Assembly (NCBI GenBank): GCA_965199825.1
Contig: OZ241329.1
Location: forward strand, 864,001-928,000
DNA length: 64,000 nt
Direction of reading: 5' to 3'
From: Bdellovibrionales bacterium
GTDB taxonomy: Bacteria > Bdellovibrionota > Bdellovibrionia > Bdellovibrionales > UBA1609
Below are positions 11,591 to 42,500 of this stretch, piece after piece (position 1 is the stretch's first letter; each line of letters begins with the position of its first letter). The position numbers were made by a program, and so were the translations under genes. The notes under the pieces are model-generated. The model saw nothing but the letters and a program-made list of their open reading frames with translations, had not been told where the DNA came from and did not search any database.

Positions 11591-12415
11591 TTATTCGATA
11601 CATCTGTGGTGGGCACGATGATGGCCAGCGCATAATATCGTAAGGTTGTCTTCCTCATGGGTGCCACCTTTTGATTGTGGAATAATGTGATGGATATCAA
11701 GGTGGCGACGTTGAGCACATCGTTCGCCTTTCTCATCGACATGACTGCATTGACTATTGAATTTGTGATGGACTTTTCGCTTAAGATTAATGGTTAACTT
11801 TATCGTGCCCGCAGATTTTTGGCGAATCGGTTTTTCTAATGGGTCAAGCTTTTGATGAAGCTCCTTAAGTGCCGCCAGATGAACATCAGCGATTGAAGCC
11901 GGGCGTTTCAATTTTTGACTTAAGAGATCTTGTGTTCGTTCAAGCATCGCAAATTCTTCCTGGGTCATTGAATATGAAATCACGACTCTCAACGTATCAC
12001 CCGCCTTTTGATATCGTGCCCGCTCAGGAATGACTTTTTCGGGTTGGACCTTTGCAATCTCTTTTTCGAGATGGCGTTTAGTCCCTTTGGCCACATTGAC
12101 CCAGTGATCGACATTTTCTTTGTTAACCACAGCGGTAATTCGATTCACTTTTGAAAGCGACAGCTCCTCCGATTCCATTTTTAATTTAAGCTCGGGGAGT
12201 TCAGTAAATTTTTTTGCAATTTTATTTACGATACTCGCCATCTCTTCCGACAGCTTCAGTTCCTTAGTTGAGTATTCAAACAATGATCGACAGCCGTACT
12301 GAGAAAAGGTTTTATTTTTCCAAACGAGTTCCAAAGCATTGAGCAATTCCATTTCGGTTTGACGATGAGCCGTGGCGGCGCTAACTGCATTGCGATGAAT
12401 TTTTAGATGATCCAT
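11591..12415 (-). CDS. HNH endonuclease with N-terminal helical region (copy 1, 274 aa)
   Basis: C..C..LDIHHIIPQSKGGTHEEDNLTILCAGHHRAHH; AGGAGA SD; near-identical to 40299-41123. Confidence 0.93.
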   Translation of the reverse strand: MDHLKIHRNAVSAATAHRQTEMELLNALELVWKNKTFSQYGCRSLFEYSTKELKLSEEMASIVNKIAKKFTELPELKLKMESEELSLSKVNRITAVVNKENVDHWVNVAKGTKRHLEKEIAKVQPEKVIPERARYQKAGDTLRVVISYSMTQEEFAMLERTQDLLSQKLKRPASIADVHLAALKELHQKLDPLEKPIRQKSAGTIKLTINLKRKVHHKFNSQCSHVDEKGERCAQRRHLDIHHIIPQSKGGTHEEDNLTILCAGHHRAHHRCIE

Positions 12416-12658
12416 AAATATCTCCTATTTAGGAGGAGTGTATCATGGCTTTTTAAAAACCAGATTTACATGATTGTTAGACGCAAACCTCATTGCCGAA
12501 GTTTGTTGGGTTTTTTGGCCTACAATTCATCTTCAATGATCAGCGCAAATAAAAAAGTATTTTGCTTCTTAAAATTCGAATGTAGGCCATCAAAGGCTGC
12601 AACAAAATGTGTCAATAAGAAATCAAAATAAAATACACGCAAACAGGCGGGCACGATA
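12416..12658 (-). other. Conserved non-coding leader of HNH copy 1 (candidate structured RNA or element end)
   Basis: Colinear with 40045-40298; inverted repeats GGCCTACA/TGTAGGCC (12517-24/12581-88) and TTTGTTG/CAACAAA (12502-08/12600-06). Confidence 0.6.
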
Positions 12659-12789
12659 CACCGTCAACCTGGTACTCAACTCAGAATTAAAAAAAAAGCA
12701 TCTCGACAGTGCATTCGAAACACTTGAAGAAATTTACGGCACGATAAACCCATTAAGCTCCAAAGCTCCCTACGCGGGCACGACTAACC
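12647..12789. repeat. Three CGG(G)CACGA motif copies upstream of HNH copy 1
   Basis: GCGGGCACGATA 12647-58, CGGCACGATAAACCCA 12737-52, GCGGGCACGACTAACC 12774-89. Confidence 0.75.
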
Positions 12790-39225: not shown

Positions 39226-39873
39226 ATGACACAAAAATCTGAGCTTGCAAGAGCAATCGATCACACGAATTTAAAACCTCTAAGCGGTGTTGAAGATATC
39301 AACCTCCTGGTGCGCGAGGCGCTTCAGTTGGGAGTGTTTTCGGTCTGTGTGGCTTCGCGCTATGTGGAGCAATGTGCTGCGGCTTTGCGTGGCAGCGACA
39401 CCTGCGTGTGCGCGGTGGTGGGATTTCCGCTGGGCCATCAAAGTTCTGAAATCAAAGCCTTTGAAACCGAGTGGTGTGTGGGGAAAGGTGCGACCGAAAT
39501 TGATATGGTTTTGGATCTTGCCGCAATTAAAGGGCGTGCTGTTTCGCTGATCGAGAAAGATATTTCGGCAGTGGTGCGCGCAGCGCGCGGGCATGTTGTG
39601 AAAGTGATTATTGAAACTTGTTTGCTGACTGATGATGAAAAATGTTTTGTGGTTCCATTGATCGAAAAATGTGGTGCGCAGTTTGTTAAAACTTCTACCG
39701 GATTTTCTGATCACGGCGCTGTGTTGGAAGATGTGCGTTTGTTTAAATCTTTGAGGCCTTCGCTTTTGATTAAGGCCAGTGGCGGTATTCGCGAGCGTTC
39801 GGTGGCGCTTGATTTTATTGCGGCGGGTGCGAGTCGGATTGGGACTTCGAATGCGGTGGGGATTTTGGGTTGA
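39226..39873 (+). CDS. deoC: Deoxyribose-phosphate aldolase
   Basis: IDHT.LKP, VVGFPLG, EIDMV, KVIIET, FVKTSTGF, KASGGIR, RIGTS. Confidence 0.96.
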   Translation: MTQKSELARAIDHTNLKPLSGVEDINLLVREALQLGVFSVCVASRYVEQCAAALRGSDTCVCAVVGFPLGHQSSEIKAFETEWCVGKGATEIDMVLDLAAIKGRAVSLIEKDISAVVRAARGHVVKVIIETCLLTDDEKCFVVPLIEKCGAQFVKTSTGFSDHGAVLEDVRLFKSLRPSLLIKASGGIRERSVALDFIAAGASRIGTSNAVGILG

Positions 39874-39877
39874 GGGT

Positions 39878-40054
39878 TGGGTTTGTCGTGCCCGCTTTGT
39901 TTTTGGGATTGTTCATTGCTTGAGTGGTTTTGGTTCTGGGATTCATATCTGTTCGGTGGGATTGTGGTGCCCGTTTTTTGTTTTTGGGATTGCTCGTTGC
40001 TTGAGTGGTTTTGGTTCTGGGATAATATCTGTGCGGTGGGATTGTCGTGCCCGC
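39878..40054 (+). repeat. Tandem repeat, ~79-80 bp unit, ~2.2 copies, anchored on TGGGWTTGTSGTGCCCG
   Basis: GTGCCCG cores at 39888, 39967 and 40047; the intervening TTTTTGGGATTG..GCTTGAGTGGTTTTGGTTCTGGGAT..TATCTGT.CGG block is repeated. Confidence 0.92.
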
Positions 40055-40298
40055 TGAGTCGGGCGTGCTTTCTCTGCATTTTATTTTCAATTTTCGTTGA
40101 CACATTTTGTTGCAGCTTTAGTTGGCCTACATTTGAATTTTACGAGGCAAAACATTTTTTCTTCTGCGCTGAACATTGCAAATGAATTGTAGAGACAAAG
40201 ACTAAGCAAACAGTGGCGTTGAGCACTCCATCTGACACGCCTTAAAAACTGGTTTTTGAAAAGCCATGATACACTTCTATCATAAACAGGAGATATTT
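40045..40298 (+). other. Conserved non-coding leader of HNH copy 2 (candidate structured RNA or element end)
   Basis: Shares TTGACACATTTTGTTGCAGC, TGGCCTACATT, TGCGCTGA, ATGAATTGTAG and CTGGTTTTT.AAAAGCCATGATACACT with the reverse complement of 12416-12658. Confidence 0.6.
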
Positions 40299-41123
40299 AT
40301 GGATCATTCAAAAATTCATTTTAATGCGGTGACCGCCGCCGCAGCTCATCGCAAAACCGAAATGGAATTGCTCAATGCTTTGGAACTCGTTTGGAAAAAT
40401 AAAACCTTTTCGCAGTATGGCTGTCGTTCAATGTTTGAATACTCAACTAAGGAACTGAAGCTGTCCGAGGAGATGGCGAGTATCGCAAATAAAATCGCAA
40501 AAAAATTTACCGAACTTCCCGAACTTAAATTAAAAATGGAATCGGAGGAGCTGTCCCTTTCAAAAGTGAATCGCATCACCGCAGTCGTTAACAAAGAAAA
40601 TGTCGATCACTGGGTCAATGTGGCCAAAGGGACTAAACGCCATCTCGAAAAAGAGATTGCAAAGGTCCAACCCGAAAAAGTCATTCCTGAGCGGGCACGA
40701 TATCAAAAGGCGGGTGATACGTTGAGAGTCGTGATTTCATATTCAATGACCCAGGAAGAATTTGCGATGCTTGAACGAACACAAGATCTCTTAAGTCAAA
40801 AATTGAAACGCCCGGCTTCAATCGCTGATGTTCATCTGGCGGCACTTAAGGAGCTTCATCAAAAGCTTGACCCATTAGAAAAACCGATTCGCCAAAAATC
40901 TGCGGGCACGATAAAGTTAACCATTAATCTTAAGCGAAAAGTCCATCACAAATTCAATAGTCAATGCAGTCATGTCGATGAGAAAGGCGAACGATGTGCT
41001 CAACGTCGCCACCTTGATATCCATCACATTATTCCACAATCAAAAGGTGGCACCCATGAGGAAGACAACCTTACGATATTATGCGCTGGCCATCATCGTG
41101 CCCACCATCGAAAAGTACACTAA
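40299..41123 (+). CDS. HNH endonuclease with N-terminal helical region (copy 2, 274 aa), between deoC and pdp
   Basis: Same HNH motif as copy 1; AGGAGA SD before ATG 40299. Confidence 0.93.
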   Translation: MDHSKIHFNAVTAAAAHRKTEMELLNALELVWKNKTFSQYGCRSMFEYSTKELKLSEEMASIANKIAKKFTELPELKLKMESEELSLSKVNRITAVVNKENVDHWVNVAKGTKRHLEKEIAKVQPEKVIPERARYQKAGDTLRVVISYSMTQEEFAMLERTQDLLSQKLKRPASIADVHLAALKELHQKLDPLEKPIRQKSAGTIKLTINLKRKVHHKFNSQCSHVDEKGERCAQRRHLDIHHIIPQSKGGTHEEDNLTILCAGHHRAHHRKVH

Positions 41124-41195: not shown

Positions 41196-42500
41196 ATGTA
41201 TCTTGCAACCGAACTCATTCGCAAAAAACGCACGGGTCAGGAGCTGACGCTTCATGAGCTTCAATGGATGATAGGTGCCTATCTCGCCAACGAAGTTAAA
41301 GATTATCAAATCTCGGCATGGCTCATGGCGGTTTGCCTTAAAGGGATGACTCCTCAAGAAACTGTTTACCTCACTCAAGTGATGCGCGACAGTGGTGAGG
41401 TTTTCGACCTCCAATATTTAAACAAATATTGCGTCGACAAACATTCGACCGGTGGCATTGGCGACAAGACAAGCATGATCATTGCTCCGCTTGCGGCCGC
41501 GGCGGGACTGGCAGTCCCCATGGTTGCGGGCCGTGGACTTGGGCACACCGGGGGGACACTTGATAAGCTCGAAAGTATTCCACATTTTTCGACAAGCATT
41601 TCGCCCGAAAAATTTCGCTCGACGCTCGAGTCACTTGGATTTGCTATCGTTGGGCAAACTCCAGAAATGTGTCCGGCGGATAAAAAACTTTATGCCTTAA
41701 GAGATGTGACCAGCACCGTCGATTCAATTCCGCTCATTTGTGCGAGCATCATGTCGAAAAAATTGGCGGAGGGTTTGAACGGATTAGTTCTTGATGTGAA
41801 GTTTGGCAGCGGAGCTTTTATGAAGGATCTTAACTCGGCCCAAACTCTTGCAAGATCTCTGATTGAGATCGGGAATGGTTCGAACGTAAAAACAAAGGCC
41901 CTTCTTACCAATATGAACCAACCTCTCGGTCATAAAATTGGCAATGCTCTCGAGATACAAGAATGTGTGGACATTATGAATAACAAAAAATGCTTGATTG
42001 ACGGTGTCGATTTTTATGCCGACACGCGAGAGCTCAGTCTTGAGCTTTGCGCACATATGCTTCATCTTTCAAAGCCTCAAATTAATTTCGAAGACTGCAA
42101 ACGAGAGGTCACAGAGCTTTTAGAATCCGGAGCGGCATTAAAAAAATTCAACCAGCTTTGCGATGTCCAAGGACAGGGTTATCCTGAAAAATTTGAAATG
42201 CCGTATGCGCCCTACCCGCTGGTTGCAACCAAAGACGGCGTGATCGAAGGTATGGATGTGGAACAAATAGGAATTGCCGCAATTGAAATCGGTGTGGGTC
42301 GCAAAACGGTAGATGGTAAGATTGATTATTGGGCGGGGTTTGAAATGAATGTTAAAGTTGGAAGCCCAATCAAAAAAGGCCAAACCCTTTTAAATATTTT
42401 TGCCAAAAATCCACAAACAATAGAAAAGCAATTGCTCAACGCCATTACGATTGGGACTTCGGCAAAACCGTCACCTTTGATTGCCGAGGTGATGCAATGA
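41196..42500 (+). CDS. pdp: Thymidine/pyrimidine-nucleoside phosphorylase
   Basis: DKHSTGGIGDKTS, GRGLGHTGGTLDKLESIP, SIMSKK, DVKFGSGAFM. Confidence 0.93.
   Translation: MYLATELIRKKRTGQELTLHELQWMIGAYLANEVKDYQISAWLMAVCLKGMTPQETVYLTQVMRDSGEVFDLQYLNKYCVDKHSTGGIGDKTSMIIAPLAAAAGLAVPMVAGRGLGHTGGTLDKLESIPHFSTSISPEKFRSTLESLGFAIVGQTPEMCPADKKLYALRDVTSTVDSIPLICASIMSKKLAEGLNGLVLDVKFGSGAFMKDLNSAQTLARSLIEIGNGSNVKTKALLTNMNQPLGHKIGNALEIQECVDIMNNKKCLIDGVDFYADTRELSLELCAHMLHLSKPQINFEDCKREVTELLESGAALKKFNQLCDVQGQGYPEKFEMPYAPYPLVATKDGVIEGMDVEQIGIAAIEIGVGRKTVDGKIDYWAGFEMNVKVGSPIKKGQTLLNIFAKNPQTIEKQLLNAITIGTSAKPSPLIAEVMQ

Follow-up and report, generated by a model that had tools for sequence, protein, structure and literature searches.

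A multicopy HNH nuclease gene family with its own DNA sites and a two-box leader in a Bdellovibrionales genome

The DNA described here contains a small putative nuclease gene of the HNH type that appears to travel with its own DNA site. In this genome and in its relatives each family of such genes apparently carries a site of its own, placed upstream of the gene, in the part that codes for a linker, at the 3' end of the gene or past it. The element is probably a distant relative of the DUF222/13E12 type, with a cis architecture that is apparently undescribed.

Two copies in the window

The window, the whole stretch of DNA that was analysed, is 64 kb long (C1:864001-928000) and belongs to a 2.84-Mb genome that is 100% complete. 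It holds two 274-residue HNH genes in opposite orientation, at the coordinates given in the initial annotation, and their proteins are 97.4% identical. Copy 2 lies between deoC and pdp, as had been proposed; Pfam domains identify both neighbours.

Copy 2 and its neighbours
39226-39873, plus strand: deoC, host gene, left neighbour (PF01791, E 4e-6)
39886-40054, plus strand: upstream motif array, TCGTGCCCGC at 39886 and 40045, variant at 39966
40097-40110, plus strand: box A, TTGAC with a T-tract behind it and A/T-rich DNA ahead of it
40111-40258, plus strand: spacer whose length, but not sequence, is conserved, with A- and T-tracts at fixed places
40259-40275, plus strand: box B, AAAA..CaTGnTAnAcT, resembling an extended -10 element, putative promoter
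40288-40292, plus strand: Shine-Dalgarno sequence AGGAG
40299-41123, plus strand: HNH gene, 274 aa
40587-41107, plus strand: tract of 521 nt that matches 11607-12127 of copy 1 without a difference and stops at the 3' motif
40691-40700, minus strand (antisense): in-gene motif 1, in the codons for ERAR
40902-40911, minus strand (antisense): in-gene linker motif, found in sense orientation at a nearby position in 13 other copies
41096-41105, plus strand: 3' motif, in the stretch coding for the metal-binding helix HHRAHH
41196-42500, plus strand: pdp, host gene, right neighbour (PF00591/PF02885/PF07831)

Copy 1
11591-12415, minus strand: HNH gene, 274 aa, with motifs inside the gene at 12014 and 11803 and the 3' motif at 11609-11618
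12437-12615, minus strand: leader, box A TTGAC at 12615-12611, box B at 12454-12437, distance 170
12647-12783, minus strand: upstream motif array, motifs at 12774 and 12647, variant at 12737

For copy 2 an ORF finder gives an earlier ATG (40266), which precedes the AGGAG at 40288. The motifs in the array of this copy sit in local duplications of 79-80 bp, and the top strand there is rich in G+T. Each of the two genes also contains the motif twice on the opposite strand (40691 and 40902; 12014 and 11803).

As first noted from the sequence, the likeness between the two copies reaches upstream to TCGTGCCCGC (40045-54; 12647-56) and is lost beyond it, and downstream it stops just past TCGTGCCCACCA (41096-41107). 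The identical tract of 521 nt is the product of recent gene conversion between the window copies. Contig read depth is doubled over it (65.8 against about 35, and 20.3 against about 7-12, in runs X1 and X2 of one study, possibly the source sample), which argues against an assembly artefact. Being an inverted repeat (11607-12127 / 40587-41107), the tract could also serve to invert the intervening 28-kb segment.

A family of copies

The unit had been described as present twice. In fact, a tblastn search of the genome finds 27 near-full copies, with 44-100% identity, and one fragment. The copies are intergenic, and the frame is intact to HHRAHH in 24 of the 27; the other three have a premature stop, an in-frame deletion and a truncation, respectively. 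The 25 copies that were aligned form one clade against three homologs from genome G030 (support 100/100). Synonymous sites are unsaturated in only 14 of 300 copy pairs, and the median dN/dS is 0.09. Thus, the expansion is lineage-specific, old and under purifying selection. The elements show no replication strand bias (14 vs 12).

Gene conversion has operated between the copies. The longest identical tracts, of 521 and 147 nt, both finish at the 3' motif, and the next-longest, of 138 and 125 nt, lie at the 5' end of the gene. A database protein, P0004, has a front half like the copy at C1:475593 and a back half like the copy at C1:2566095. Read by eye, the switch point is near the first in-gene motif; the protein may be a recombinant or a chimeric assembly.

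Of 30 other genomes in the order that were searched with the window query, 15 have homologs, often in many copies, and 15 have none. In the genus g58 they occur in 34 of 44 genomes (0-16 matches per genome) and are missing from 10. The window protein matches 7,263 clusters at 50% identity. Families are genome-specific: for the main family of genome G015, the best likeness in the sister genome G109 is 39%. A phage origin was considered and rejected, the two weak matches being limited to the HNH part. A defence system was likewise rejected, PADLOC matches being restricted to the same part. A metagenome scan gave 19 loci, matching the HNH part only.

One way to explain such a family is retention by the host. 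The gene would then encode an autoregulated nuclease whose sites are plain operators of its helix-turn-helix or ribbon-helix-helix domain, and the copies would stem from ordinary duplication or transfer. The host might use the enzyme to break down prey or foreign DNA, or to promote rearrangement. Low dN/dS and the age and mostly intact state of the copies argue for this explanation, and the available part of one paper proposes that 13E12 genes are kept for the inversions they allow (PMC13157036). The gaps in distribution among the 30 relatives and the 44 g58 genomes argue against it, as do the genome-specific families. Overall it is a serious explanation and a rather unlikely one.

The motif and its arrays

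The 10-mer TCGTGCCCGC occurs 300 times in the genome, compared with 4.1 expected under an order-3 Markov model and 3 for the reversed control. It reaches at most 50 occurrences in any of 200 other genomes of the order. The motif of this genome, TCGTGCCCRC, is asymmetric, and upstream of the copies it is found 151 times in sense and once in antisense orientation. The 8-mer TCGTGCCC has 522 sites, 427 of which are either within 1.3 kb of a copy (234) or in nine orphan arrays (193). Of the other 95, 57 are isolated, about as many as expected (55). These isolated motifs lie mostly within long ORFs (52/57) and show neither skew nor depletion, which makes cutting at a lone site improbable. A genome-wide polar motif of the Chi, KOPS or uptake type is ruled out, since the excess is confined to the HNH copies and the nine arrays.

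Arrays are either irregular or made of perfect tandem units of 16-25 bp with local filler. The orphan arrays hold 11-40 TCGTGCCC motifs each, mostly in perfect tandem units of 16-20 bp with locus-specific filler, and have no HNH gene within 1.5 kb:

C1:246215, 484400, 751483, 808687, 953715, 1355531, 1538411, 1575773, 1618395: orphan arrays

A second short element, ACACC(G/T)CCGGA, has 11 matches, 9 of them beside motif arrays when read by eye (sites include C1:246440, 512617, 1133691, 1202961, 1249027, 1566045, 1575874 and 2565798).

Inside the gene, the 3' motif is exact in 24 of 25 copies. Its codons are nearly fixed: His266 is CAT and Arg267 CGT in 25/25, and Ala268 is GCC in 24/25. In-gene motif 1 is present in 17 of 25 aligned copies, and the codon for Arg134 is CGA in 92%, compared with a share of 0.28-0.62 for the commonest codon in other conserved Arg columns. 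The linker motif is in sense orientation in 13 of 25 copies, antisense in 10 and neither in 2, and its two orientations encode different peptides. The in-gene motif is thus under constraint at the DNA level, with frozen synonymous sites.

The ends of the unit had been called defined. This holds for the 3' side, where similarity between copies breaks off a few bases past the motif. It does not hold for the 5' end, which is a variable motif array. Among the observations named in advance as counting against the unit, only one was made: the 5' end has no single common boundary across copies.

The DNA beside elements and orphan arrays shows a mirror strand skew, G/T-rich on the left and C/A-rich on the right, that tails off within 200 bases. 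On the left, the 50 bases next to the first motif have a G/T skew of +0.44/+0.36, and right of the orphan arrays it is -0.33/-0.25; controls stay within 0.09. Counted by element, the G skew is positive on the left in 23/26 and negative on the right in 17/26. No such skew was seen at 443 intergenic regions or 57 lone motifs. Nor was it found at the loci of G015, G030 and g58, and in G029 it is weak. Exposed single strands are prone to deamination, and the skew may reflect deamination of 3' single strands laid bare at recurring breaks.

Operators of a host-retained gene would account for the upstream sites and for their orientation on one strand. They leave unexplained the nine orphan arrays, the frozen motif in the last codons and the flanking skew.

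Y1 transposase genes

The same genome has 17 genes with Y1_Tnp matches, none of them at any HNH copy.

C1:247000-247536, 423043, 1557903, 155843, 853684 and 12 more, outside the window: Y1/HUH transposase-like genes

In 14 of the 17, the gene is preceded by a motif on the same strand, AAATGACA(T/G/C)TGCCCC, with 46 matches in the genome and 1 for the reversed control. The flanks of this motif have a similar mirror strand skew. The Y1 family has the same architecture of upstream arrays that is seen at the HNH genes, though its enzyme is unrelated to theirs.

This likeness suggests another explanation, in which the HNH gene is a passenger of the Y1 (HUH) transposases, moved by them in trans, and the arrays are REP-like substrates. 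The Y1 genes' own upstream motif, TGACA(T/G/C)TGCCC, has TGCCC in common with the HNH motif. One TCGTGCCC array is directly ahead of a Y1 gene (C1:246215-247000), and in g58, by eye, Y1-like and HNH genes share the interval that precedes mutS. Such a passenger is decidedly unlikely, however. The site varies with the HNH family, even within one genome, and is located inside HNH codons. It has no hairpin, unlike REPs as treated in the accessible part of 10.1101/279083, and the Y1 genes lack the TTGAC leader pairing.

The protein

The HNH domain of the window protein is matched by PF01844 with 32.1 bits against a cut-off of 21.4. H242, H243, N257, H266 and H270 are invariant in 103 homologs, and the catalytic and zinc residues are invariant or nearly so. 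The IscB model NF040563 matches residues 207-272, i.e. the HNH part only, with E 6.6e-10 and 38.6 bits against a cut-off of 175. RuvC motifs are absent, as had been stated at the outset.

An AlphaFold2 model of the window protein, built from 103 alignment rows, has a pLDDT of 94. It predicts the following architecture, with the HNH domain on a variable linker:

Residues 3-34: long helix
Residues 16-125: ParB/KorB-like helical domain
Residues 141-190: ribbon-helix-helix
Between ribbon-helix-helix and HNH domain: linker
Residues 205-274: HNH domain

Structural matches are middling throughout, all with Z below 8. The top row is the HNH domain of IscB (9nvu: Z 7.0, rmsd 2.4, 59 aligned), and the HNH of phage GVE2 has Z 6.7. 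The remainder of the protein resembles ParB (6s6h: Z 6.5, rmsd 5.1, 101 aligned), KorB (8qa8: Z 6.4, rmsd 3.2, 96 aligned) and the ribbon-helix-helix of TraM (3omy: Z 5.3, rmsd 2.4, 49 aligned). Foldseek gave nothing at E <= 0.001.

A resemblance to DUF222/13E12 proteins, named in the initial annotation, turns out to be a distant likeness. Pfam finds DUF222 in 5 of the 103 homologs (E <= 0.05; best 7.8e-7), HTH_ParB in 15 and ParG in 1; the window proteins themselves do not match DUF222 (PF02720). In the Atlas, where the neighbours of the window protein are mostly Bdellovibrionota, a neighbour cluster at 0.94 has DUF222 on 12% of its members, which is a lead only.

The protein is modelled as a homodimer in which each chain has a ParB/KorB-like helix-turn-helix, followed by a ribbon-helix-helix and an HNH domain. 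The dimer model scores 0.76, compared with 0.00 for the best control, and the mark for this score is reached by 20 of 30 solved pairs and 1 of 23 single chains. Contacts agree to at least 94% between runs, with pLDDT of at least 80, and the predicted interface is formed by helix 1 and the ribbon-helix-helix. Ribbon-helix-helix dimers are textbook structures, and the score may owe its pass to likeness with those already known.

The leader

Leader counts cover 25 copies. The two divergent copies left out (C1:805042 and 799110) have a shorter, different leader without a TTGAC box at -200. Box A, TTGAC, is 198-204 bp ahead of the start codon in all 25 copies, and the distance from TTGAC to the TG of the extended -10-like box B is 168-171 bp, again in 25/25. 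The spacer has a median ungapped identity of 35%. Box B by itself is frequent elsewhere in the genome; the pair of box A and box B at a distance of 168-171 is found solely at HNH copies.

The pairing is not limited to this genome. In nine others both boxes are present in 42 of 60 loci, which were chosen from the top matches listed and not at random, some of the misses being contig ends. Nearly all of these pairs are at 166-171, 175-176 or 184-189, and one is at 159. Genome G028 has TTGAC at -227 to -229 and a variant box B. In g58, both boxes were found in 26 of 40 loci from the top matches listed, at 167-169 or 185-188.

A spacer of fixed length suggests a DNA structure that may be bent, looped or wrapped. 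A helical period of 10.5 bp in its A/T tracts is not clear, the top periods being 12.5 and 11.5. The leader was also considered as a small ORF and rejected, because the frame is open in at most 4 of 25 copies.

Conserved leader length could also point to RNA. In an RNA-associated nuclease of the HEARO/OMEGA kind, a possibility raised in the initial annotation, the leader or the array would be a guide or scaffold RNA, and the HNH domain is indeed IscB-like (NF040563, below its cut-off; 9nvu as the top fold row). The 25 leaders, on either strand, have no shared fold, with z-scores from -2.8 to +2.0. For 23 leaders the consensus fold is empty and the covariation excess at most 0.10. No Rfam family matched the leader, one chance row (E 0.28) falling within the coding sequence. 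Most of the leader lies upstream of the predicted -10 box. Furthermore, RuvC is absent, the rest of the modelled protein resembles binders of double-stranded DNA, and the arrays, made up of irregular or perfect repeats, lack a repeat-spacer organisation. An RNA partner is therefore very improbable.

Sites in other genomes

The site changes with the family. Most families' sites are palindromes or near-palindromes of 12-20 bp. In G029, 3 of 4 copies have two or three occurrences of GTGACCCGCGCCAGCGCGG upstream and a further one in the linker. The second family of G030 has a palindrome, TTCTTCACC..GGTGAAGAA, both upstream and in the linker in 2/2 copies. In the main family of G015, a core RTTGCRGC precedes TTGAC by about 35 bp in 12 of 15 copies and is inverted past the stop in 2; this upstream motif was not found in the linker. 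The first family of G030 and the copies of G028 have linker palindromes that were mostly not found upstream. Among 26 g58 copies, leader and linker share a word of at least 13 bases in 8 (control stretches 0/26), and 18 have no common word of 13 bases.

One comparison relates protein to site. In nine G030 copies, the recognition helix and the linker palindrome fall into three classes that match in 8/9, which shared ancestry could explain; a start offset misaligned one row of this comparison. Next to the HNH copies of G030 and G015 (flanks of L013-L021 and L027-L032) there are often short hairpin repeats whose core is CATGGATG.

Occupied and empty loci

The initial annotation had proposed a search for empty deoC-pdp sites. 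In 29 relatives, all from other genera, deoC adjoins pdp in 21 and the HNH gene is there in none; in the other 8, deoC is absent next to pdp. In a related strain an HNH end is apparently joined to pdp (one contig, depth 4.8).

Pairs of filled and empty loci can be found upstream of mutS in g58, where they may represent either gain or loss. G075 and G150, whose flanks are 95-96% alike, differ by about 1.49 kb, which replaces 7 bases. G133 and G083 differ by about 1.8 kb, which replaces 15 bases. Target duplication and terminal repeats were not seen in either pair, nor, by eye, was the cognate family site in the two empty alleles. This pattern suggests neither classical homing nor classical transposition. 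The indels extend some hundreds of bases past leader and stop. Several filled loci in g58 are orthologous between species, which favours the host-retained explanation.

The g58 interval upstream of mutS (L162-L191) is a hot spot: 3 of 30 loci have the HNH gene, about 8 have Y1-like genes (by eye) and the rest differ. An apparent case of "same site, different family" was rejected here. The G133 copy is about 600 bases further, beyond a small gene, and thus a separate insertion and not a replacement. As for excision, a joint skipping the element was absent from contigs, which drop rare variants.

A possible mechanism

The explanation considered best, which might equally well prove right or wrong, is that of a selfish nuclease which would recognise and cleave its own sites and control its own expression, while break repair by the host copies, converts and amplifies it. 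It is favoured by the 27 copies and their single clade, the excess, placement and orientation of the motif, the frozen codons, the sites that other families have both upstream and in the linker, the differences in occupancy between relatives, the predicted fold and dimer, and the mirror skew. In this model, the dimer would first bind its own site (TCGTGCCCRC in this genome). Binding would regulate the box-B promoter, box A, 170 bp away, being perhaps looped or wrapped in phase, and would tether the HNH domains. Next, occasional nicks or breaks at the element's own sites would lead to recombination repair by the host. Repair could convert sister copies from the 3' motif inwards, and duplicate motif-bearing segments to form arrays. 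Now and then the whole unit would be copied to another intergenic site by imprecise joining. Copies bearing more of their own sites would be copied more often, so that in each lineage the protein and its site would change in step.

Several observations run counter to the selfish-nuclease model. Old, mostly intact copies are as compatible with lasting retention under selection as with turnover. Filled loci are shared across g58 species, and the related strain seems to be filled at pdp as well. The empty g58 alleles lack the site by eye, many copies in g58 and some families elsewhere have no common word or site in leader and linker, the skew was not found at the G015, G030 and g58 loci, and lone motifs show neither skew nor depletion. 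The Y1 family, whose enzyme is unrelated, has upstream arrays of the same kind. The initial annotation had also spoken of a self-propagating unit. Many copies, cis elements of its own and the absence of a transposase from the unit were all found; from these features we infer propagation.

Relation to known systems

A wider and more speculative proposal, somewhat unlikely as it stands, is that the very large DUF222-like HNH superfamily is an undescribed class of transposase-free prokaryotic mobile elements. In these, a dimer would recognise a lineage-specific site in its own gene and leader, assemble on a ruler-like leader of 170-190 bp, copy itself by break repair, and leave arrays and strand-skewed scars. 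If so, each family would be a compact site-specific nickase whose site can be read from its own DNA, and a nuclease-only class of mobile elements would be added, together with a natural library of protein-site pairs. Multicopy HNH genes of the DUF222/13E12 type are common, and their function and mode of spreading are still unexplained, according to the accessible part of PMC13061034. The present genome yields a sharp substrate prediction, a 10-bp site frozen in active-site codons and amplified 70-fold, and the two-box leader at fixed distance is conserved across an order. One small protein and an oligonucleotide would thus be enough to address the question directly.

Free-standing HNH homing endonucleases of the I-HmuI type are nuclease-only selfish genes that spread by break repair and co-conversion. 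They cut the empty cognate allele at one locus. In contrast, the site here is carried by the element, at 27 dispersed loci, and the empty alleles in g58 lack it by eye. Compared with an insertion sequence, the unit has no transposase, and two filled/empty pairs in g58 have no target duplication. IscB/HEARO (OMEGA) proteins have a related HNH domain, but here there is no RuvC and no structured RNA, and the match is far below the family cut-off.

The helix-turn-helix of ParB binds a cognate parS site of 12-16 bp as a dimer. A fold likeness to ParB/KorB/Noc domains is predicted at residues 16-125, and to a TraM-type ribbon-helix-helix at 141-190. Unlike ParB, the modelled protein has no CTPase domain and is fused to HNH; there is no partner ParA, and the site is asymmetric in this genome.

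RAYT/REPIN (TnpA-REP) systems, as far as the available text of 10.1101/279083 describes them, are similar in being long-lived, often multicopy nuclease genes with cognate short repeats nearby and orphan repeats elsewhere; in RAYT subclass 2.4 cognate repeats are at times inside the gene. They use a HUH transposase and palindromic REP hairpins, whereas here the enzyme is of the HNH type with folds that bind double-stranded DNA, and the repeats are direct and on the same strand.

The closest known relatives are the 13E12/DUF222-HNH genes of Mycobacterium tuberculosis (REP13E12), which are likewise multicopy and chromosomal and encode an HNH domain at the C terminus after a helical N-terminal region. 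In the accessible parts of the papers, 13E12 paralogs are gene-conversion hot spots that 'lack defined biological function' (PMC13061034), 13E12 repeats are inversion breakpoints (PMC13157036), and 13E12 genes are largely LexA-controlled (PMC3381160). Dispersed copies and gene conversion are also present here (27 copies; tracts of 521 and 147 nt). The window protein differs in its 274 residues and in having no DUF222 match. Self-sites, arrays and a two-box leader go unmentioned for 13E12 in those parts of the three papers (PMC13061034, PMC3381160, PMC13157036), and a literature search, whose coverage leaves out most subscription journals, gave nothing on self-sites, motif arrays or such a leader.

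A LexA-type box, too, was not found in the 25 leaders. The palindrome of the lexA promoter, GTAC-N3-GTAC, occurs in 0/25 with one mismatch allowed, and four SOS patterns have 0, 0, 2 and 0 matches. This palindrome, just ahead of lexA (L192:1690-1705), has only 3 exact copies in the chromosome and is a candidate LexA operator of the lineage.
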